In this document: piece after piece, positions 15,476-61,988 of the stretch
Numbering within the stretch: the stretch's first letter is position 1
How the letters are laid out: the number at the start of each line of letters is the position of its first letter
NCBI GenBank assembly: GCA_041686375.1
Contig: JAWLEB010000001.1
Location: 73,997 to 137,996, forward strand
Source: Bacteroidales bacterium
Lineage (GTDB): Bacteria; Bacteroidota; Bacteroidia; Bacteroidales; UBA12077
Length of the DNA: 64,000 nucleotides
Direction: 5' to 3'
Translations under genes and position numbers: made by a program
The notes under the pieces: model-generated
What the model was told of the DNA's origin: nothing
The model's input: the letters and a program-made list of their open reading frames with translations, nothing else
Databases searched by the model: none

Positions 15476-16720
15476 TTATCCATTATTTTTCATAGGTTGA
15501 ATTTTACCATAAGTTAAACTTCTCCATAACCACTCGAAAGGCCCGAATCTGAATCGTTTTAACCACCATTTACTAAAGACTATTTGCGCTGAAAATATTA
15601 TAATTACCAGTACGATACCTTGCCAGGCCTCAACTTTACCAATTAGTCTCAAACCATGTGAGTAAAATAAAAAAGCGCTAATTATCGATTGCAATAAATA
15701 ATTTGTTAGCGCCATTCGTCCAACTGGCGCCAACAGGAAGCTAAGCCACCCCGATTTCCCTTTTGCGAATAATATAGCCATAGCCGATATAATGGACAAA
15801 CCAAAGGCTATTCCACCAAAGGTGTGCATGATAGAAGTAAGTAACATCCAGCCATCCGGAATGCATAAAATGGAATAGTGCGAAGCGATGGTATAAAGGG
15901 TGTTGGTTGGTACTCCAACACCAACACCCCACCAGAAGACTTTCTTAAAAAATGAAAGATTATTCACATATTCCGTTAACAATTTTTTTCGTGCAAATAA
16001 GACTCCTAATAAAAACATACCAAGAATAATCGGAAAGAAGGTCAATGTGCCGGGTAATAATGTTAAATATTCATCGATCCGCACAGTGATTATTTCAGAA
16101 AAACTCCCTTTTGCGTATATAGCAGCGGTATGCTCAACAAATTGGGTTATTTCATGAATTGATTCCTGAAAGGCTGAGTCCATAGCTTCTTTCGCTTCCG
16201 GGATTTGTGAAAGTGCCCAGATCATTGAAACTAGTAAGGTGATTACTACTGGCGGCACCAAAACCAAAGAGATTATCCATTTTTTTATTTTTTTCTCTGA
16301 TGCTTTTTTAAAAAGTATCAGTATAAAACCTAATAAGGTATAGTAAAGGAGAATATCGCCAACCCATAAAAGTACTATATGAGCAATCCCAAAAAGCATC
16401 AAAAAAAACAGTCTTCTTCGGAAAACAGGAACAACACTTGAACCGTCAGAAGTTGATTTGTTTAAAAAAATCCAAAAACCAAAGCCAAACAGCATAGAAA
16501 AAATAACATAAAATTTCCCTTCAAAAAAGAATTTAATAAATGATTCTGAAATCAATTGGTGTATAGGAGCATCCTGAGAAGAGCTAATTAACATTTTGGT
16601 CATGGGTTCATACATGTATTGCATGTTTACCATGAATATGCCAAAAATTGCCAGTCCTCTCAGGGCGTCAATTAAAACAATTCGTTCTGCAGGTCTCAGT
16701 GGTGAAACTCGTGTGCTCAT
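15476..16720 (-). CDS. DUF418/YeiB-like membrane protein
   Basis: N-terminal IDALRGLAIFGIFMVNM, polytopic, with C-terminal FRFGPFEWLWRSLTYG typical of DUF418. Confidence 0.75.
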   Translation of the reverse strand: MSTRVSPLRPAERIVLIDALRGLAIFGIFMVNMQYMYEPMTKMLISSSQDAPIHQLISESFIKFFFEGKFYVIFSMLFGFGFWIFLNKSTSDGSSVVPVFRRRLFFLMLFGIAHIVLLWVGDILLYYTLLGFILILFKKASEKKIKKWIISLVLVPPVVITLLVSMIWALSQIPEAKEAMDSAFQESIHEITQFVEHTAAIYAKGSFSEIITVRIDEYLTLLPGTLTFFPIILGMFLLGVLFARKKLLTEYVNNLSFFKKVFWWGVGVGVPTNTLYTIASHYSILCIPDGWMLLTSIMHTFGGIAFGLSIISAMAILFAKGKSGWLSFLLAPVGRMALTNYLLQSIISAFLFYSHGLRLIGKVEAWQGIVLVIIIFSAQIVFSKWWLKRFRFGPFEWLWRSLTYGKIQPMKNNG

Positions 16721-16916
16721 TTTTCCCGTTTAATAATACATTGCTGATGTTAGTTGAACGATTTACAGTTATTAGTATTAATTTTTCTTTTGGTATTACA
16801 TTTTTAGATAGGATAAATTTTTATGGTGATAAAATTTTTAGAATTTTACCCCATGAAAAAGTATTTCCTGTTAACAAATCAACTAGTTAATCTTTGTCAA
16901 TTATTTTTAATGTTTT

Positions 16917-17405
16917 ATGGATAGGCTATATTTATTATTGGGAAGTAATCAGAATAACAGAGAAGCTTTGCTTCAGACTGCAACAGAACAAATTAAATCC
17001 CAAATAGGGGATCTTATACAGTGTTCGTCTATTTATGAGACTGAACCATGGGGGTTTAAAGATGATATGTATTTTTTAAACCAGGTTGTTGTTTTTGAAT
17101 CCGGGAAACCACCCTTGCAAATTCTTGATCAGATTAATGAAGTAGAGAAGAAATTGGGCAGGAAGAGAGAGAATGTTGATCAATATACCAGCAGACCTAT
17201 AGATGTTGATATATTGTTCTATGGGAATCGCATTTATAACATGGAACAATTAAAGATTCCCCATCCGTTAATTCAGGAGAGGCGATTTGCCCTGGTTCCA
17301 ATGGTTGAGATTGAGCCTGATTTTGTACATCCGCAATTGCAAAGGAGGATATCTGCCTTGCTTGACGAGTGCCCAGACCCTTTGGAAGTGCACAGGTATA
17401 AATAG
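16917..17405 (+). CDS. folK: 2-amino-4-hydroxy-6-hydroxymethyldihydropteridine diphosphokinase
   Basis: YETEPWGF, RPIDVDILFY and IPHPLIQERRFALVP. Confidence 0.9.
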   Translation: MDRLYLLLGSNQNNREALLQTATEQIKSQIGDLIQCSSIYETEPWGFKDDMYFLNQVVVFESGKPPLQILDQINEVEKKLGRKRENVDQYTSRPIDVDILFYGNRIYNMEQLKIPHPLIQERRFALVPMVEIEPDFVHPQLQRRISALLDECPDPLEVHRYK

Positions 17406-17445
17406 ATTTGACAGGTTATTTATCTTCCTTTACCGGCAGAGTGTC

Positions 17446-18141
17446 TTATTTATCAGAAAAACCCAGAGTGGCAATGCTAATGGAAGTATTTTTGGTCTCC
17501 AGAATGGTATTTGCACATGCCTCAAGTGTAGCCCCCGTGGTTAATATATCATCTACCAGGAGGATATGCTTATTGCGAAATGTGAACTTGTCTTTGAGTT
17601 TAAAGACCTTTTCTACATTTAACCATCGTTCATATTTACTTTTCTTTGTCTGGCTGTCTGTATATTCTGCTCTGTAAAGGATGTCGGTTGATAAGGGTTT
17701 GTTTAATTTTTCAGCCATTCCTTTTCCAATCCATTCACTTTGGTTAAATCCTCTTTTCCTCAATTTCTTTTTATGCAGGGGCACAGGAACAATATAATCT
17801 ACTTCAGAGAAAGGAGAACTTTTTAATTCGTTGCCCATTTTTCCTCCCAGCTCATAACCTATGTTTTTTTTTCCGTTATATTTCATTTCGTGTATAAGCC
17901 GCTGATATCTGCTTCCTTTGGTATAGAAAAAATAGGAGGTCGCATACTGAATTGGAATTCTTCCCCAGAATATTTGCTCAACTGGATTTTCAGGCTCCTT
18001 GTGATAATTCGTTTTGGGTAAGTCCAACAAACAATGTGGGCACAGATACTTTTCTTTTGGGGGCAGTTCTCCACCACATGCAATACATGTTTCTGGGAAA
18101 ATTAAATTGATAAAATCATTTATAAATTGAGGTATGGTCAC
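17446..18141 (-). CDS. comF: ComF-family phosphoribosyltransferase-like protein
   Basis: N-terminal Cys pairs CIACGG...CPHC and PRTase motif ILLVDDILTTGATL. Confidence 0.85.
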   Translation of the reverse strand: MTIPQFINDFINLIFPETCIACGGELPPKEKYLCPHCLLDLPKTNYHKEPENPVEQIFWGRIPIQYATSYFFYTKGSRYQRLIHEMKYNGKKNIGYELGGKMGNELKSSPFSEVDYIVPVPLHKKKLRKRGFNQSEWIGKGMAEKLNKPLSTDILYRAEYTDSQTKKSKYERWLNVEKVFKLKDKFTFRNKHILLVDDILTTGATLEACANTILETKNTSISIATLGFSDK

Positions 18142-18165
18142 TTTATACCGGATTAGTTAGTGTTT

Positions 18166-19041
18166 TTATTCAGATAGAGCATCCACGGCCGTGGGGTCGA
18201 AACTTTTTTCTTTTGCAAATTCTATGCATTTAGACCAGTCATCATAATAATAGGCTTTAATTTTTTCCAGTTCTTCATTTCCTATAATTTTTTCATCCAA
18301 AAACCATTTTTTTGGCAGCAAATAGGCTGCATATAATATTAAGTGGCATAAAAGCCAACGCGAACGAAAATTAATATAATGAAGTGTTTTATTTTTGATT
18401 TCTTTTTTTTCCCGTGGGAAGATTTTTGTACTGATGCGCTTTAATACCTTTAGTTGTTTTGTACTGTAGGATTTATGTTGAGGATTTATATCTATTTTGT
18501 TTTTCTCATATTCGGCTCCGGTATATTTTGCAATACGGTCAATGAAAGAGAAGGGATCATTTTTTAATTCATCGTGAAAGAGCACCAGTGGTTTGTTGGG
18601 AAATATTTCTTCTATCAACTGAAGTTTCTTATGAAAGAATCCTTCTTTTAAGTCCCAGTGTCCCTGGTTATTCTCAATATCTACAAATTCACCAAAGGAT
18701 TTATATCCTCCGTTTTTTACATAACGTCGGTACTGTGAAGCGAGCCAGCTGTCATTTCTGCGCAGAACAATAATGATGCTGGCATATGGATAGTGGGATG
18801 CCATCCTTCTGACTTCCCGTTCAAATTGACGGTCAAATTCTCGTGAAATCAGATATGTTTTGTGGTTGGTTTGTTCAATAATTTTTGGGTACTTTTCGTA
18901 CCGGGTACGTTGTATATAATAAATTCCTTTAAATTTTGGAAAAACTTTATACTGGAGATATGTGGATGCGGTTTTCCCGAGTCCTACATGAAAGTAGATT
19001 TCTTTATTGAGATTTTCCATAGTTATTTGTTGTGTGTCCAA
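18166..19041 (-). CDS. Sulfotransferase-like protein (paralog A)
   Basis: FHVGLGKTASTYLQ resembles a PAPS 5'-phosphosulfate-binding loop. VLRRNDSWLASQYRRY resembles a 3'-phosphate-binding motif. There is a C-terminal hydrophobic helix. It is clearly paralogous to 20354-21199. Confidence 0.55.
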   Translation of the reverse strand: MDTQQITMENLNKEIYFHVGLGKTASTYLQYKVFPKFKGIYYIQRTRYEKYPKIIEQTNHKTYLISREFDRQFEREVRRMASHYPYASIIIVLRRNDSWLASQYRRYVKNGGYKSFGEFVDIENNQGHWDLKEGFFHKKLQLIEEIFPNKPLVLFHDELKNDPFSFIDRIAKYTGAEYEKNKIDINPQHKSYSTKQLKVLKRISTKIFPREKKEIKNKTLHYINFRSRWLLCHLILYAAYLLPKKWFLDEKIIGNEELEKIKAYYYDDWSKCIEFAKEKSFDPTAVDALSE

Positions 19042-19226
19042 AAAATTTAAGTTTCCAAATTTACAGATTTTATGATAATTTATAAATGAGGCCTGAGTAA
19101 AAAGGATGCTAATCTTCCGTATTCTTGGGATAATATTTTTGACCTAATTATTTGTAAAATTAAGGTGTATGATAGACCTTAAGGAATCAATTTGTTTAAC
19201 TTTGCAAGGAAATAAATCTTGAATGA

Positions 19227-54924: not shown

Positions 54925-56049
54925 TTATAGTCTTAACAATTTCATCAGTTTAATGGAGAGATCGAGAAAAAGGGTTTTATTATGCGCATTCATTTGAATA
55001 TCACGTGATGCATTATTAATCTCAGTGAAAATTTTATGAGCATTGTTATTGTTAATAAACTGAGAAAATTTTATGGAGAAATCTTTTTCTTCCTGGGTAA
55101 GATATGTTATTTTTTCCATTTCCAAATTAAGCATAAAATTTTCTCTTACCATTCTTGCCGCATATTGAAGGAATATTTTTTGTCTTTCTCTTCCAAGTGA
55201 TGACATTTCATCTACCCAGTTCAGGATGTCGGTTACCTTTTTGGCATAGCTTAGACGCATTAATTCAACAAAACGTTTGAAATTGTTTTGTTCTTCCTCT
55301 CCGGTACGAAAATAGTGTAGCGCATCCAGGTAGCTCCCGTTCGCCAGGTGCACAATCTCTTGTGCCTTTTTTACTTCCAGCCCCATATGGTCTGTTAATG
55401 CATTAAACATACTTTGATCATCAATGCCGGGCACTTTAATATTTTGGGTTCTTGAAAGTATTGTTGGAAGCAGAAGGTCGGAGTTTTCAGAGACCAGAAA
55501 AAACAATGTGTTTGGTGGTGGTTCTTCAATGATTTTAAGCAGCTTATTTGCTGCACTGGTATGCATTCTTTCCGGAAGCCATATTATCATCGTTTTATAG
55601 GGAGACTCATAACTTTTATAATTTAACTTTTTTATGATGTTGTGGCTTTCATTTGCCGGAATAATTCCCTGTTTGTTTTCCAGTTCCAACTTGTGGTACC
55701 AGTGGTTTGGGCTAAGGTATGGGTTTTCGAGTATGGTGTTTCTCCATAATTCTGCGTAATTGTCACTGGTTTCAGGATTGGTCTGTGATGCCTTTTTTAC
55801 GGGATAGACAAAATGTAAGTCAGGGTGTACAAGCCTCCGATATTTTTTACAAGAATTACATATACCACATGAATCATTTTCCTGTCTGTTTTCACAATTA
55901 ATATACTGAGCATAAGCAATTGCAAGGGCTAATTTGCCTGTTCCCTGAGGACCCAGGAAAATTTGGGTGTGGCTTATTCTCTCATCTTTAACTGTTTTTA
56001 TCAGTTGTTGCTTTATTTTGTACTGTCCAATAATTTCTTTGAATTGCAT
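54925..56049 (-). CDS. holB: DNA polymerase III subunit delta'
   Basis: AAA+ N-domain GPQGTGKLALA, zinc module CGICNSCKK, and SRTQ sensor. Confidence 0.85.
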   Translation of the reverse strand: MQFKEIIGQYKIKQQLIKTVKDERISHTQIFLGPQGTGKLALAIAYAQYINCENRQENDSCGICNSCKKYRRLVHPDLHFVYPVKKASQTNPETSDNYAELWRNTILENPYLSPNHWYHKLELENKQGIIPANESHNIIKKLNYKSYESPYKTMIIWLPERMHTSAANKLLKIIEEPPPNTLFFLVSENSDLLLPTILSRTQNIKVPGIDDQSMFNALTDHMGLEVKKAQEIVHLANGSYLDALHYFRTGEEEQNNFKRFVELMRLSYAKKVTDILNWVDEMSSLGRERQKIFLQYAARMVRENFMLNLEMEKITYLTQEEKDFSIKFSQFINNNNAHKIFTEINNASRDIQMNAHNKTLFLDLSIKLMKLLRL

Positions 56050-56164
56050 ATCTGTTATTTATGGCTATATTTCTATGTTTTCATTATCTTCGCTGTTTGT
56101 AACAACTCTTCAAAGTTAATTAAAATAAAATTTTTATATTTAACTAAAAAAATAATACCAACCC

Positions 56165-58549
56165 ATGTATTCAATAGACAATTATAACTTTAAAGGTAAG
56201 AAAGTTTTAATGAGAGTGGATTTCAACGTTCCCCTCGATAAAAATCAAAAGATAACCGATGATACCAGGATAGTGACAGCTTTGCCCTCTATCCAGAAAG
56301 TTTTAAGCGAGAAAGCAGCACTAATTTTGCTTACACATCTGGGTAGACCTAAAGGCAAGTATGATGAAAAATTATCGGTAAAGCATATTGTTCCCTATCT
56401 TTCAAATATATTGGAACGTGAGGTTCAATTTGTCGATGGGTGCATAGGCGATAAAGTTAAAAAGAAAGTAAGTGAATTAAAGCCCGGCGAAGTTTTGATA
56501 TTAGAAAACTTGCGATTTCATCCGGAGGAAAAGAGGGGCGGTAGTGAATTTGCCCGGCAACTTGCTGAGTTAGGGGATGTATATATTAATGATGCATTTG
56601 GAACAGCCCATAGGGCTCATGCTTCTACTTATACGGTGGCTAAATATTTTTCCAAAGATAAGATGTTGGGTTATTTGGTAGAAAGTGAAATTAAGAATAT
56701 GGACAGGGTGCTGAATGAGCCAGAACATCCATTTACAGCAATTATAGGAGGGTCAAAGATTTCTACTAAAATACACATTATAAAAGCCTTAATTGAAAAA
56801 GTTGATAATTTAATAATTGCTGGAGGTATTGCTTATACATTTAGTAAGGCTACCGGCGGCAAAATTGGGAATTCCATTGTTGAGAATAATTATTTAGATG
56901 TGGCGCTTGAGATAATAGAAAAGGCAAATAAATTTAAAGTGAATCTTTATTTACCGACCGACTGTATTATTGCGGATGAATTTAAGAATGATGCTAATAT
57001 TAAACATACTGAAATAGACAGCATCCCTGACAACTGGATTGGAATGGATATTGGAATTAAATCTGCCAACCAGTTTGCAAATGTTATTGAAAATTCAAAA
57101 AAGATACTTTGGAATGGTCCCATAGGAGTTTTTGAGATGTCTAATTTTTCTATGGGGACCTTAAAAATTGCTATGGCAGTGGCTTCAGCAACAGACCGTG
57201 GTGCTTTTTCTGTGTTAGGAGGTGGAGATAGTATTTCTGCTGTTAATAAATATGGACTATCAAACCGTATTAGTTTCGTTTCAACGGCTGGAGGCGCTTT
57301 ACTGGAATATCTGGAGGGAAAAGAATTACCTAGTTTACGGGCAATTCGTGAACAACTGACGATTGATAATTATGATTTTAATGGGAAAAGAGTTTTAATG
57401 CGAGTTGATTTTAATGTCCCTATGGATGAAAATTATAATGTTTTGGACAACACCCGTATCATAACTGCTTTGCCAACTGTGCGGAAGATTCTAACAGATG
57501 GTGGTTCTATAATATTTTTGACTCACCTTGGGCGGCCGGTTGGCGAATATGATGAGCGTTTATCTCTCAAACATATCGTGCCTTATCTTTCCCGTATTCT
57601 GGATAAAGAAATAAAATTTGTTGATAACTGTCTGGGGCGCAGAGCTAAATTAGCTGCAGAAAACTTACAACCGGGAGAGATTCTGTTATTAGAAAATCTG
57701 AGATTTCATAAAGAAGAATTTGAAGGAGACGAACAATTTGCCAAAGAACTCGCTGAATTAGGCGATGTTTATATTAATAATTCTTTTGGTACAGCCCACA
57801 GGGCTCATGCTTCCACTTATACAATTGCCAAATTTTTCCCTGACAATAGAATGTTAGGATATTTGGTTGAAAATGAAATAAACAATATCAATAGAGTTCT
57901 GAAAAGGCCTAAAAGACCATTTACTGCTATTTTAGGAGGATCTCAGGTCTCTACCAAGATACATATCATTCTTTCATTGTTACAAAAAGTTGATAACCTG
58001 ATTATTGCCGGGGGTATTGCTTATACTTTTGTCAAAGCCATGGGTGGAGATGTCGGCGATTCATTAGTGGAGGAGGATTATCTTGATGTTGCTAAAGATA
58101 TCTTGGATAAAGCAGAAGAATTAGATGTAAGTTTATTATTGCCAATCGATTGTGTTATCGCCGACGATTTCAATAATAATGCTAATATAAAGCATAGTGA
58201 TATTAACAAAATAGAAAAGGGCTGGAGAGGGATGGATATTGGTATTAAATCTGCCAACAAATTTGCAGAAGTAATAGAAAGTTCATCTTCCCTGCTCTGG
58301 AATGGGCCAATTGGTGTTTTCGAGATGTCGAATTTTTCCAGTGGTACACTTCGCATAGCTTTGGCTGTTACCCGTGCTACTGATAAAGGTGCATTTTCTT
58401 TAATCAGTGGAGGTGACTCTATTGCAGCATTGAATAAATATAATCTGGCTCATAAAGTAAGCTATGTGTCTACAGCAGGTGGTGCTCTGCTGGAATTTAT
58501 TGAAGGGAAGCAATTACCTTCCCTGAAGGCTATTGAGGAAAATATTTAA
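56165..58549 (+). CDS. pgk: Tandem-fused phosphoglycerate kinase (PGK-PGK didomain, 794 aa)
   Basis: Two full PGK units with a period of about 396 aa and no gaps. Each carries RVDFNVP, HLGRP, ENLRF, GTAHRAHAS, GGS(K/Q).STKI, WNGPIGVFE, (G/S)GGDS, STAGGALLE. The junction ..LRAIREQ|LTIDNYDFNGKRVLMRVDFNVP lies near nt 57353-57358 with no stop. Confidence 0.9.
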   Translation: MYSIDNYNFKGKKVLMRVDFNVPLDKNQKITDDTRIVTALPSIQKVLSEKAALILLTHLGRPKGKYDEKLSVKHIVPYLSNILEREVQFVDGCIGDKVKKKVSELKPGEVLILENLRFHPEEKRGGSEFARQLAELGDVYINDAFGTAHRAHASTYTVAKYFSKDKMLGYLVESEIKNMDRVLNEPEHPFTAIIGGSKISTKIHIIKALIEKVDNLIIAGGIAYTFSKATGGKIGNSIVENNYLDVALEIIEKANKFKVNLYLPTDCIIADEFKNDANIKHTEIDSIPDNWIGMDIGIKSANQFANVIENSKKILWNGPIGVFEMSNFSMGTLKIAMAVASATDRGAFSVLGGGDSISAVNKYGLSNRISFVSTAGGALLEYLEGKELPSLRAIREQLTIDNYDFNGKRVLMRVDFNVPMDENYNVLDNTRIITALPTVRKILTDGGSIIFLTHLGRPVGEYDERLSLKHIVPYLSRILDKEIKFVDNCLGRRAKLAAENLQPGEILLLENLRFHKEEFEGDEQFAKELAELGDVYINNSFGTAHRAHASTYTIAKFFPDNRMLGYLVENEINNINRVLKRPKRPFTAILGGSQVSTKIHIILSLLQKVDNLIIAGGIAYTFVKAMGGDVGDSLVEEDYLDVAKDILDKAEELDVSLLLPIDCVIADDFNNNANIKHSDINKIEKGWRGMDIGIKSANKFAEVIESSSSLLWNGPIGVFEMSNFSSGTLRIALAVTRATDKGAFSLISGGDSIAALNKYNLAHKVSYVSTAGGALLEFIEGKQLPSLKAIEENI

Positions 58550-58775
58550 TTTTAGTTTATAATTTTAATGATTTATTTAACCCGAATTATTCAAAAATTT
58601 AAGTTCACCTAAGTCGGCATCACCTTTGCTTTGTCAATATTGCGGAGTAAGGGTTTAATCTGCATTTAATCCAAATATTTTATAAATATGAATTATGTTA
58701 GGTATTAATCAAATGAACAATTCATCGGAATATAAACTATTATATAGTAAGATGTAGAATAAAAAAGTTAAAGCC

Positions 58776-60065
58776 ATGATAGAAAAATACAATTTACCCT
58801 TGATACAAAATGCCGATCTGGATGGAAAGGTCGTTTTGGTAAGAGTTGACCACAATGTTGTAAAAAAAGGAGAAATCCATGACCCTTATCGTATTGACGC
58901 TACAATTGGAACACTATATCATATCAATGCAAAAGGAGGAAAAATTATTTTGATGACTCATGTGGGTCGTCCCAGAGATAAGAAAACGGGAAAGATAGAA
59001 ATTAGTGATGATTTATCAGTTCAACCCATTGTGGATTATTTGCAGAATAAACTTCATATATCTCTTAAAGTTCCGGAGTTTCAGCAACACGGGGATAAAG
59101 GCTATCTGGGAATTGAAACTTCCGTCAACCATTTAATACGTGAATTACGTGAAGGTAAGATTGATGGTATTTATTTGCCTAATACTCGTTGGTTTTATGG
59201 TGAAGAAGCAGGAGGGGAAGAAGCCGATAGGTTTGCTCATCAATTGGCCGGTCTGGCAGATATTTTTGTTAATGATGCTTTTGGTTCATGGCAACCACAT
59301 GCTTCCACTGTTGAAGTGAATAAATACCTTCCTTCTTATGCAGGTTTTTTGATGCAAAGTGAAATAGAAAACCTGGAGCGAATTTACAATCCAAGGAAAC
59401 CATTTGTTGCTGTAGTAGCAGGGGCAAAATTTGATACCAAGGCGGAACCCTTGTATGCTCTACTGGAGAAGGTAGATTATCTTATTTTAGGAGGCGTTAT
59501 ATACAACGCTTATCTTGCGGCTAAATATGGTTTTGAAATTAATGGAATCACGGAGGAAGACCGTAAGCTGGCAAAAGAATTTATAGATTATGCAGAAAAG
59601 TATCAAAATAAAGTAGTGGAACTTCCTTATATTATTGAGTCTGATACACTTGAGGGCAGGATTGAAGGGAAATACAGAGAACACTATATTCATGATTTAA
59701 AATTCGGTACCAAACTGAATTATGTTTTGGATGTGTCACACAAATCCTTTGAAGAGGAAAGGGTACAGGAAGTATTTCATAATGCACAGACTATATTTGT
59801 AAATGCTGTCATGGGTTTCACTCCATATTTTAATGAAGGAACCATAGCTCTTGACCAGCTTATTGATGAAAATGTTGATGCTGTGAAGTTATATGGTGGA
59901 GGAGATACAATGCAAGAATTGAAACGCCTGTTGCCTGGCTTGTATATTGTTGCACTGGATCATCCAAAATATTATATTTTCACCGGCGGAGGAGCCGTTT
60001 TGAAGGCTATACAAGAAGGAACAACACTTGGGCTTGAACCTGTCAAAGCCCTTAAAAATTCGTGA
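58776..60065 (+). CDS. Divergent phosphoglycerate-kinase-family protein (429 aa)
   Basis: The PGK scaffold is recognisable but altered: RVDHNVV, HVGRP, NTRW, NDAFGSWQPHAS, AGAKFDTK, GGGDT, FTGGGAVL. There is extra sequence between the HVGRP and NTRW motifs. Confidence 0.7.
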   Translation: MIEKYNLPLIQNADLDGKVVLVRVDHNVVKKGEIHDPYRIDATIGTLYHINAKGGKIILMTHVGRPRDKKTGKIEISDDLSVQPIVDYLQNKLHISLKVPEFQQHGDKGYLGIETSVNHLIRELREGKIDGIYLPNTRWFYGEEAGGEEADRFAHQLAGLADIFVNDAFGSWQPHASTVEVNKYLPSYAGFLMQSEIENLERIYNPRKPFVAVVAGAKFDTKAEPLYALLEKVDYLILGGVIYNAYLAAKYGFEINGITEEDRKLAKEFIDYAEKYQNKVVELPYIIESDTLEGRIEGKYREHYIHDLKFGTKLNYVLDVSHKSFEEERVQEVFHNAQTIFVNAVMGFTPYFNEGTIALDQLIDENVDAVKLYGGGDTMQELKRLLPGLYIVALDHPKYYIFTGGGAVLKAIQEGTTLGLEPVKALKNS

Positions 60066-60227
60066 TTTAGTTCATCGCAATAGAAATTTTGTTTTATTTT
60101 TGCTACAATCACCAGCGCTTTTTTCATTGGTTACAGGAAAAAATGACATTATAATGCTGGTGGTCATTATGGCAAAATTTGCGTTACAGCTTTTACAGCA
60201 AGATAGTTAATTTGGCTAAAAATTATT

Positions 60228-60854
60228 ATGAAAGGATTTGTAGTTTACGATATTCGGGGAATATTCAATTCGGATTTTGATAAAAATGATGTTTATAAAT
60301 TCGGATGTTTTATACCAGAGCTTTCAGATGCGGATAAAGTTTTGGTGGGAATAGATGTACGTGAAGGCCGGGATGAAATTTTTGACTACTTGCTTAAGGG
60401 ATTAACTGACAGAGGAGTTGATGTGTACGAGGTAGGGCTCGCCATTACCCTAATGGTATATTATCTTGTTGGGAAATATTCGTTTAAGCTTTCTGTACAA
60501 ATTACTGCTTCGCACAACCCAAAGGAGTATAATGGTTTCAAAGTATCCGGAGAAGAAGTTTTACAGGATATTCGTTGCTCAAAATCTGTCCAGGAGTATT
60601 TAGAAAAATTTGATGCTCGGGTTCATACCTGGAGGGTTGGAATAGCATTTGCATCGTCACGGCTGAAAGGGATTGACGAGCCTTATGGTGGAGACCTTGC
60701 AGGTCATTATTCCTTTAAAGATTTTTATTATTCTGATTCGGGTATTATGGCTGTCTTGATAGTTTTGGGCATAACAGCACAATTCAAAGAGCAGGAGAAG
60801 TCCATTTCTGATGTTATGGATGAAATTAAAAATTTGATAGTACCCTATCACTGA
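60228..60854 (+). pseudogene. Phosphomannomutase/phosphoglucomutase-family remnant (domain I plus fragment of domain III; intact 208-aa ORF)
   Basis: Domain I has YDIRG and phosphoserine motif ITASHNPKEYNGFKV. The sequence then jumps directly to GGDLAGHYSF...DSGIMAVL (domain III sugar loop). No DGDGDR-type metal loop and no domain IV are present. The stop overlaps the rnhB ATG (TGATG). Confidence 0.55.
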
Positions 60855-61462
60855 TGGCCTTGAAACAATATTATAACAAGGGAGTAGTTGAGGCTGGCTG
60901 TGATGAGGCTGGCAGAGGATGTCTTGCAGGTCCGGTTTTCGCCGCTGCCGTGATCTTTCCAAAAGATTATGATAACCAGGATGTAAATGATTCAAAAAAG
61001 CTTAAGGCAGGTAAACGTGACCAATTATGTAAACAAATAGAAGAAGACGCTTTAACTTATGCTGTATCAAGGGTGGATGCGGAAGAAATTGACGAGCTAA
61101 ACATTTTTAGAGCCTCAATAGTAGCTATGCACAGGGCTATAGCTAAATTATCCATTGACCCTGATCATTTACTTATTGATGGCAAATATTTTTATAGCTA
61201 CAAATCTTTCTCCCATACGTGTGTAATCAAAGGCGATTCCAAATTTCTATCTATTGCCGCTGCTTCTATACTTGCTAAAACTTACAGGGATGCGTTTATG
61301 ATCAAATTGCATGAGGATTATCCTGAATATCAATGGCATAGCAACAAAGGATATCCAACAAGACACCACAGAGAGGCGATAAAAATCCATGGCATTACTC
61401 CATATCACCGGAACAGCTTCCGGCTATTACCAGAAGCTTATCAGGTGAAACTGGATATTTGA
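60854..61462 (+). CDS. rnhB: Ribonuclease HII
   Basis: GCDEAGRGCLAGPV and DSKKL. 202 aa. Confidence 0.9.
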   Translation: MALKQYYNKGVVEAGCDEAGRGCLAGPVFAAAVIFPKDYDNQDVNDSKKLKAGKRDQLCKQIEEDALTYAVSRVDAEEIDELNIFRASIVAMHRAIAKLSIDPDHLLIDGKYFYSYKSFSHTCVIKGDSKFLSIAAASILAKTYRDAFMIKLHEDYPEYQWHSNKGYPTRHHREAIKIHGITPYHRNSFRLLPEAYQVKLDI

Positions 61463-61472
61463 GTTGTTTAAT

Positions 61473-61988
61473 TTATTTGTCTTCTTTCGTTTCGTCTTCA
61501 AACTTTCTTTCGGCTAATTCTCTGTCAACCATAAGCAATGCATGCCCACTGCCTTCTAACATTTTCAGCTTTTGCAGAAGTTCATCGGCAGAGGCCTCTT
61601 CTTCTACTTGCTCTGACACAAACCACTGAAGCATATTATCTGTACTATGATCTTTTTCTTCTCTCGCCAAATCAACTAAATCATGAATCATTTTTGTCAC
61701 TTTTTGTTCATGCTGGTAGACTTCTTCCATCACTTTGACCGGGTTGTCCCATTTAGCTGGCGGCTCCTCTATAGCCTTTAGTGAAACTTTACCTCCCCGA
61801 TCAAATATATAGTTGTAGATCTTCATTGCGTGAGTCATCTCTTCCTGTGCCTGAATATACATCCAATGTGCAAATCCTGAAAGATTCATGTCCTCAAAAT
61901 ATGCGGACATGGAAAGATAAAGATAAGCGGAATACATCTCTGCATTTACTTGTTCATTAAGAGCTTTTTCCATTTTTTTTGATAACAT
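61473..61988 (-). CDS. Ferritin (non-heme, FtnA-like)
   Basis: Four-helix ferritin-like ferroxidase residues: NEQVNAEMYSAYLYLSMS, QEEMTHAMK, EQVEEE. Confidence 0.85.
   Translation of the reverse strand: MLSKKMEKALNEQVNAEMYSAYLYLSMSAYFEDMNLSGFAHWMYIQAQEEMTHAMKIYNYIFDRGGKVSLKAIEEPPAKWDNPVKVMEEVYQHEQKVTKMIHDLVDLAREEKDHSTDNMLQWFVSEQVEEEASADELLQKLKMLEGSGHALLMVDRELAERKFEDETKEDK

Follow-up and report, generated by a model that had tools for sequence, protein, structure and literature searches.

The stretch of DNA analysed here, 64,000 nucleotides (nt) of contig JAWLEB010000001.1 from a Bacteroidales bacterium (assembly GCA_041686375.1, positions 73,997 to 137,996; hereafter the window), contains a gene in which two complete phosphoglycerate kinase (PGK) units are joined head to tail within a single open reading frame (ORF). 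We consider it likely that this PGK-PGK didomain gene encodes a genuine, chromosomal tandem-fused enzyme, in effect a covalent double PGK, of which the second unit is probably impaired in the window protein. The architecture is shared by a large family of Bacteroidales proteins whose two halves have evolved in concert, and it has arisen at least once more in other bacteria. The window protein is a real and conserved variant of an ordinary enzyme and not a new kind of system.

The PGK-PGK reading frame and its junction

The gene and its parts are the following.

56165..58549, plus strand: PGK-PGK didomain gene, a single ORF of 794 amino acids (aa) plus stop with two full-length PF00162 matches
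56165..57352, plus strand: N-terminal PGK unit (N unit), aa 1-396, canonical throughout; identity to 1PHP, the PGK of G. stearothermophilus, 48%
57353..58546, plus strand: C-terminal PGK unit (C unit), aa 397-794, with subclade-specific active-site substitutions; fold and all residues of the 3-phosphoglycerate (3-PG) site retained
57338..57367, plus strand: fusion junction ...RAIRE/QLTID..., boundary at 57352/57353, with no stop, linker or Met

When aa 1-396 were compared with aa 397-794 by BLASTP, 259/394 residues were identical (66%) and 86% positive, with 0 gaps. The Pfam profile PF00162 covers both units, from position ~1 to 379 of 379 in each (E = 5e-297). The units meet at ...LPSLRAIRE(396)/Q(397)LTIDNY... 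(nt 57352/57353), and the peptide spanning this junction reads ...AIREQLTIDNYDFNGK. Neither a stop, an intergenic spacer nor a second start lies between the two copies in the window, as would be expected of unfused tandem pgk genes. Among 114 aligned full-length homologues the junction is gapless in 114/114, and an internal Met is not conserved. The original prediction, made from the letters of the DNA, had given the same coordinates, a repeat offset of 396 residues and an identity of 60-70% by eye, and had described a join with neither stop nor linker; all of these statements proved correct.

At the DNA level the two halves are 65% identical, with 40% identity at third codon positions. The proportion of synonymous differences (pS) is 0.78, that is saturated, for a nonsynonymous divergence (dN) of 0.27, and the longest identical run in register measures 15 nt. 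Since the halves are this far apart, with synonymous sites saturated, an assembly duplication is excluded. In addition, the 2385-nt gene recurs in a separate Logan assembly (L001, from run SRR31818009), where it differs at 0 positions and has the same flanks. The original view of an old duplication-fusion rather than an assembly duplication is thus upheld by both the saturated sites and the second assembly. The GC content of the didomain gene is 36.6%, that of the whole window 35.9%.

Distribution of the didomain family

A protein search returned more than 100 clusters (defined at the 90% identity level, from NCBI, JGI, ENA and Logan assemblies) of 791-797 aa that align to the window protein with 100% coverage and 60-91% identity. 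Those bearing names are entered as 'phosphoglycerate kinase' of Bacteroidales, Marinilabiliales or Bacteroidota metagenome-assembled genomes (MAGs). A HMMER search of 1.84 billion 50%-identity representatives yielded 5066 PGK representatives at E <= 1e-30. The only full-length bacterial didomains among them were P0256 (795 aa), which belongs to the Bacteroidales-type family, and P0259 (797 aa), which is 41% identical to the window protein. The remaining multi-PGK matches were fragments and a few long proteins (P0261, P0263, P0340), the latter probably eukaryotic. Profile scanning of genome contigs gave at least 600 stretches, mostly with single-domain Bacteroidota pgk, and two didomain loci among the matches listed.

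No chain with two PGK units was found in the PDB, nor did the full-text literature return a description of a PGK-PGK, double, fused or tandem PGK protein. A 2020 review of PGK treats PGK-TIM fusions and the multidomain PGKs of kinetoplastids, with PGK-PGK and Bacteroidetes unmentioned (PMC7729029). The PGK-PGK protein is apparently new as a description, not as data, being abundant among metagenome proteins named 'phosphoglycerate kinase'. The novelty claimed originally stands for the description and the structure but not for the architecture as such, which metagenome protein collections hold in large numbers.

Chromosomal position and origin of the fusion

The position of the gene can be traced by its divergent neighbour.

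54925..56049, minus strand: holB (DNA polymerase III delta'; Pfam DNA_pol3_delta2), marking the ancestral pgk locus

In the window, as in the relatives L082-L087, the didomain gene divergently adjoins holB, beyond which follow PSP1, gldH, trmB-like, ogt-like, mrp and nifU genes. A holB(-)/pgk(+) pair arranged in this way accompanies the single-domain pgk at ~22 other Bacteroidota loci, mostly from Flavobacteriales, and the didomain therefore occupies the ancestral pgk position. The simplest origin is a tandem duplication in situ followed by in-frame fusion. An ancestral Bacteroidales pgk, divergent to holB, would have duplicated in tandem, and in-frame joining of the copies would then have removed the stop of the first and the start of the second, producing one polypeptide with two complete two-lobe PGK units.

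Concerted evolution of the two halves

We placed the N and C halves of the Bacteroidales family in a neighbour-joining tree with 78 single-domain Bacteroidota PGKs. In 99/100 bootstraps the halves formed one cluster to the exclusion of the single-domain enzymes, whether or not the tree included PGK3, a divergent PGK paralogue encoded downstream of the didomain gene (see below). N halves and C halves were not reciprocally monophyletic in this tree, and a split of all N from all C halves was never recovered in the bootstrap trees. Likewise, the family-wide alignment contains 0 positions with one residue in >85% of N halves and another in >85% of C halves. In pairs of proteins that are >80% identical, orthologous halves are always the more similar ones, a signal that nearly vanishes below 70% identity.

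A test for concerted evolution was made by dividing the family into 13 groups (78 group pairs). The distance between orthologous halves was smaller than that between opposite halves in 71/78 group pairs, while the cross-lineage N-C distance exceeded the mean N-C distance within a protein in 78/78, with an average excess of 0.088. In individual proteins the N and C halves are each other's sisters, as in P0114 (195/200 bootstraps) and P0080 (116/200). Taken with the invariant junction, the pattern of distances and trees points to one original fusion and to later episodes of gene conversion between the halves. Several independent fusions within the Bacteroidales family are disfavoured by the identical gapless junction throughout. 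Because the halves evolve in concert, the 34% divergence seen in the window protein does not date the original fusion; it probably dates the last homogenisation, which would have preceded the radiation of the 67-member group to which the window belongs. The duplication-fusion is old, as had been proposed, but the divergence of the halves provides no date for it, the clock having been reset in several lineages.

An independent fusion and a probable horizontal transfer

A second type of PGK-PGK is represented by two loci.

L003 1477-3876: Mesoterricola-type PGK-PGK, directly upstream of tpiA
L090 8001-10394: Mesoterricola-type PGK-PGK, directly upstream of tpiA

The first lies on a GC-rich contig labelled Mesoterricola sp. 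(Acidobacteriota) and encodes, in one ORF, a protein of 799 aa whose halves share 73% amino-acid and 77% nucleotide identity and are sisters in 100/100 bootstraps. The Mesoterricola-type clade consists of seven clusters of 797-799 aa at 87-94% identity, its members (L003, L090, P0259 and P0406-P0411) having both units intact. Since these halves are closest to each other and the protein is 41% identical to that of the window, the comparison shows a second, independent fusion and hence at least two origins of PGK-PGK in bacteria. The old duplication-fusion proposed originally concerns the Bacteroidales family and not all bacterial PGK-PGK proteins. A third bacterial origin, for which P0413 was a candidate, is rejected on account of halves that are 99% identical in nucleotides and by oversize operon neighbours. 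This 789-aa 'PGK-PGK' lies in a Firmicutes-like cggR-gap-pgk-tpi-gpmI-eno operon (L089 3734-13518), in which the calls for triosephosphate isomerase (TIM; 379 aa) and enolase (568 + 174 aa) are oversize too. It probably stems from an assembly error or from a local duplication of very recent date, and makes a useful negative control.

A didomain of the Bacteroidales type, 62% identical to the window protein, is also found in a sediment MAG labelled Aminicenantes/Acidobacteriota (L092 7001-12414; also L093), where a native gap-pgk(398 aa)-tpiA-secG operon follows it immediately downstream. With Bacteroidota PGKs the N half of this didomain shares 58-59% identity, whereas the native PGK is ~40% identical to either half. 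The N half being nearer to Bacteroidota PGKs than to the native enzyme, horizontal transfer is indicated, and the L092/L093 didomain was probably acquired in this way. Just upstream of a distant member of the didomain family lies a DDE transposase gene (L091 6070-6516), a neighbour that fits with occasional mobility of the gene.

Catalytic residues and predicted structure

PGK, a monomeric enzyme of two lobes that bend about a hinge, serves as a model of domain closure and of protein folding; both termini of the chain lie in the 3-PG-binding N-lobe. Residues are given below in human PGK1 numbering, mapped via alignments with 1PHP and 1VPE. Both units of the window protein have the 3-PG residues D23, N25, R38, H62, R65, R122 and R170, which do not vary among the 114 homologues. 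Together with K215, K219, N336, E343 and the GGGD motif, these residues are kept in both halves of 106/114 members. In the N unit all classical ligand and catalytic residues are present in the window and invariant in the 114 homologues. Site-wise entropies of the two halves correlate with r = 0.89 (means 0.81 and 0.88 bits), and within the large group of the window five positions separate N from C, none of them catalytic. Family-wide subfunctionalisation of the halves is ruled out by the 0 N-versus-C signature sites. From these residues we infer the activity of each unit: across the family both units would be built as working, equivalent PGKs (1,3-bisphosphoglycerate + ADP <-> 3-phosphoglycerate + ATP), kept alike by recurrent gene conversion, and the protein would act as a covalent double PGK in glycolysis and gluconeogenesis.

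The window protein was modelled with AlphaFold2 (AF2) from an alignment of 80 sequences, with a mean pLDDT of 90, a pTM of 0.55 and a pLDDT of 68 for the junction residues 391-400. Each predicted unit superposes on 1PHP with a TM-score of 0.95 and a root-mean-square deviation of 1.5 Å over 393 columns (Foldseek), so that the model gives both units the two-lobe Rossmann-like hinge fold. With both chain ends of PGK in the N-lobe, a join without linker should hold the two 3-PG-binding lobes together, and would leave the two nucleotide-binding lobes free to hinge.

The C unit of the window subclade

A departure from the family-wide pattern concerns one codon in particular.

57944..57946, plus strand: codon CAG for Gln594, at the position of the catalytic Lys215 of human PGK; Gln in 8/114 C units

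Lys215 of PGK contacts the transferring phosphoryl group, and its mutation reportedly lowers the kcat of the human enzyme strongly. Of 191 diverse single-domain PGKs, 190 have Lys at this position, as do all 114 N units and 106/114 C units. Gln is found there only in the C units of P0002-P0008 and P0010; the window and seven close clusters (P0003-P0008 and P0010), 82-91% identical, carry this K215Q substitution. The C units of the subclade deviate at A540S, K594Q, G748S and Y778F, all at sites that are at least 97% conserved in all other halves. A540S falls within the NDAFGTAHR motif, and G748S (G371 in human numbering), found in 5/8 subclade clusters, within GGGD. The N units of the subclade show one partial deviation at such conserved sites, versus four in the C units. 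In the window C unit the residues of the nucleotide site and of phosphoryl transfer are thus not all in place (K215 replaced by Q594, G371 by S748), and we regard the C unit of this subclade as probably impaired in catalysis.

Measured against the nearest relative, L082, the N unit of the window has a dN of 0.098 and the C unit one of 0.113, values which indicate that the C unit is not decaying and that purifying selection is equally strong in both halves. In the sub-lineage of the window the canonical N unit presumably carries the activity. The C unit, with Gln in place of the phosphoryl-transferring Lys215, would be weakly active or inactive while still folded and ligand-binding, and may be kept for a structural or regulatory role.

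Neighbouring genes: PGK3 and a PGM/PMM remnant

Two further ORFs lie downstream of the didomain gene; the original prediction had recognised neither the first as a third PGK-family gene nor the second as a truncated PGM/PMM gene.

58776..60065, plus strand: third, divergent PGK-family paralogue 'PGK3', 429 aa, PF00162 E = 2e-81
60228..60854, plus strand: PGM/PMM-family (alpha-phosphohexomutase) remnant, 208 aa, internally deleted, with domain I and part of domain III

PGK3 is ~31% identical to either unit of the didomain protein. In L002, L082 and L084-L087, too, the didomain is followed by a PGK3 (~428 aa). It is absent from the didomain carriers L091, L092 and L094 and occurs alone in a Desulfobacterales genome. 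Over the best 120 clusters the PGK3 family shows 75-93% identity, and it includes Desulfobacterales and Desulfobulbaceae MAGs. The changes H169W, R170Q, G212A and P338V and a deletion removing E343 are invariant in 121/121 sequences, while D23, N25, R38, H62, R65, R122, K215, K219, N336 and GGD are retained, a combination that suggests a kinase, probably with a different substrate pocket. A description of PGK3 was not found in the literature on atypical or PGK-like bacterial paralogues.

The PGM/PMM-family gene is intact in relatives, where it occupies the same position and encodes 445-446 aa in four domains, with scores below every NCBIfam equivalog cut-off. With the L082 gene the window ORF aligns in two separate stretches only (tblastn and DNA alignment), and it ends directly before the RNase HII gene. 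With the intact four-domain gene at the same position in relatives, the window remnant looks like a lineage-specific pseudogene. The linkage of the didomain to PGK3 and PGM is partial; an obligate linkage is ruled out by the carriers that lack both and by the solitary PGK3 of Desulfobacterales.

Alternative explanations

The chance that the didomain is an artefact, either two tandem pgk genes or one gene merged or duplicated through an assembly or sequencing error at the junction, seems to us negligible. Such artefacts do occur, as P0413 illustrates with its nearly identical halves and oversize neighbouring calls. Plant two-PGK proteins of 865-909 aa resemble merged gene models, and NCBI annotation sometimes splits the fusion to give a 401-aa protein. 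The window gene, with halves only 65% identical in DNA and saturated at synonymous sites, is of another kind. An independent assembly carries the identical sequence, and the open gapless junction recurs in 114 homologues from many samples and assemblers. As to the 401-aa NCBI models, P0131 and P0132 consist of the C half alone, called from an Ile codon; as this codon lies within a continuous ORF, such models are choices of annotation and not stops. The didomain could also be an accessory enzyme that works with PGK3 and the PGM/PMM mutase in a separate phospho-sugar or phospho-acid pathway, and not the housekeeping PGK, one possible variant being that the didomain supplies the 1,3-bisphosphoglycerate from which a mutase or bisphosphate synthase would take its phosphoryl group. 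In favour of this, L082 and L084-L087 share the gene order didomain, PGK3, PGM, and L002, in which neither holB nor the PGM gene was detected, still has PGK3 after the didomain. PGK3 itself forms a subfamily of high conservation whose substrate pocket is probably altered, and one didomain carrier (L092) also possesses a canonical pgk. This pathway is nevertheless improbable in view of the carriers without PGK3 or PGM (L091, L092, L094), the PGK3 that stands alone in a Desulfobacterales genome, and the deletion of the PGM gene in the window while didomain and PGK3 are intact. The intergenic gaps of 226 and 162 nt and the location of the didomain at the ancestral pgk position speak against it as well, and the donor variant is modelled on mammalian PGM2L1.

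The 100-kDa vertebrate hexokinases consist of duplicated and fused 50-kDa units, and a comparable division of labour, with one unit catalytic and the other a regulatory or allosteric ligand sensor, might be the point of the PGK fusion. The C unit of the window subclade lends itself to this idea: its substitutions K215Q, A540S, G748S (5/8) and Y778F stand at sites invariant elsewhere, while no 3-PG-binding residue has been lost and the unit is still under purifying selection. Across the family, however, both units retain every catalytic residue in 106/114 members, there are 0 N-versus-C signature positions, and gene conversion between the halves is tolerated; the Mesoterricola-type fusion, too, retains both Lys residues. 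With intact units, no signature sites and tolerated conversion, specialisation cannot account for the fusion, either ancestrally or in the family at large, and we regard such a division of labour as unlikely to be its purpose. The hexokinase analogy drawn in the original prediction fails for the family at large (106/114 intact, r = 0.89, 0 signature sites) and survives as a weak hint in the eight-cluster K215Q subclade. Somewhat less likely again, we think, is that the window sub-lineage is in transition to a catalytic-plus-sensor enzyme, in which the C unit would be a non-catalytic, 3-PG- and nucleotide-binding regulator of the N unit; a wider version would add PGK3 and the mutase as an undescribed phosphotransfer module. 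If true, this would be the bacterial PGK counterpart of the hexokinase story.

Our preferred reading of a covalent double PGK with a probably impaired C unit in the window has to contend with several points of its own. The size of the K215Q effect is carried over from mutagenesis of human PGK, and part of the signal read as gene conversion could stem from lineage-specific convergence in composition. The separate canonical pgk of L092 shows that housekeeping need not depend on the didomain alone. Given a pTM of only 0.55 and the junction pLDDT of 68, no fixed arrangement of the two units is predicted with confidence, and the geometry of tethered N-lobes proposed above follows from the position of the chain termini and is not carried by the AF2 model.

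Comparison with known PGK arrangements

Each unit of the window protein is complete by comparison with monomeric bacterial PGKs (1PHP and 1VPE of Thermotoga maritima), with 46-48% identity, TM-scores of 0.89-0.95 and shared ligand and catalytic residues, and the gene occupies the same chromosomal position as the single-domain Bacteroidota pgk. It differs from them in having two units per chain without a linker, the second unit being devoid of Lys215. In the PGK-TIM protein of Thermotoga (NCBIfam NF010569), PGK is likewise extended C-terminally by another glycolytic enzyme. The partner here is instead a second PGK, and positions 5-393 of the 645 of that profile are matched twice. No TIM domain (PF00121) was matched in the didomain protein with Pfam and NCBIfam, in keeping with the contrast to Thermotoga that had been drawn at the outset. 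The protein nevertheless scores 1004.7 bits against an NF010569 cut-off of 883, because the two PGK copies add up. The fusion may consequently be misnamed 'bifunctional PGK/TIM', or else be split into an artificial 401-aa protein, a pitfall for annotation.

With the 100-kDa hexokinases the didomain shares the head-to-tail duplication and fusion of a hinge-bending kinase and, in the window subclade, a half with a substituted catalytic residue. Unlike in these enzymes, a consistent loss of catalysis in one half is not seen, most PGK-PGK halves being intact and interchangeable. The Mesoterricola-type proteins have the same architecture, linker-less junction and intact units, and a glycolytic neighbour in tpiA; they differ in their 41% identity to the window protein, in halves that are mutually closest and in forming a narrow clade. 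Kinetoplastea possess multidomain and 'dead' PGK-like proteins, some without catalytic residues (PMC7729029). In these, too, PGK domains are part of unusually large proteins, but the proteins are eukaryotic and add PAS, cNMP-binding or transmembrane parts rather than a second PGK (PMC7729029).

A conserved, linker-less covalent PGK dimer that evolved at least twice departs from the monomer paradigm for this enzyme. The advantage of tethering two PGKs, so far as we infer one, might lie in stability, dosage, cooperativity or an interaction with GAPDH. The family also offers a natural graded series, with two intact sites in most members and K215Q in one subclade, that is suited to the study of drift toward a pseudoenzyme half, and it illustrates clearly how two parts of one ORF can evolve in concert.

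Further observations around the locus

A scan of positions 55900-61600 for sigma-70 promoters and terminators, which does not cover Bacteroidota promoters, remained at chance level (25 promoters versus 21.4 expected, 5 terminators versus 3.7), and no RNA genes were found in the window by Rfam and tRNA scans. In L082, cydA, cydB (cytochrome bd oxidase) and a DUF4492 gene lie between the RNase HII and ferritin genes (16064-19123). These three genes are absent from the corresponding place in the window, where RNase HII and ferritin are 10 nt apart (61462-61473).

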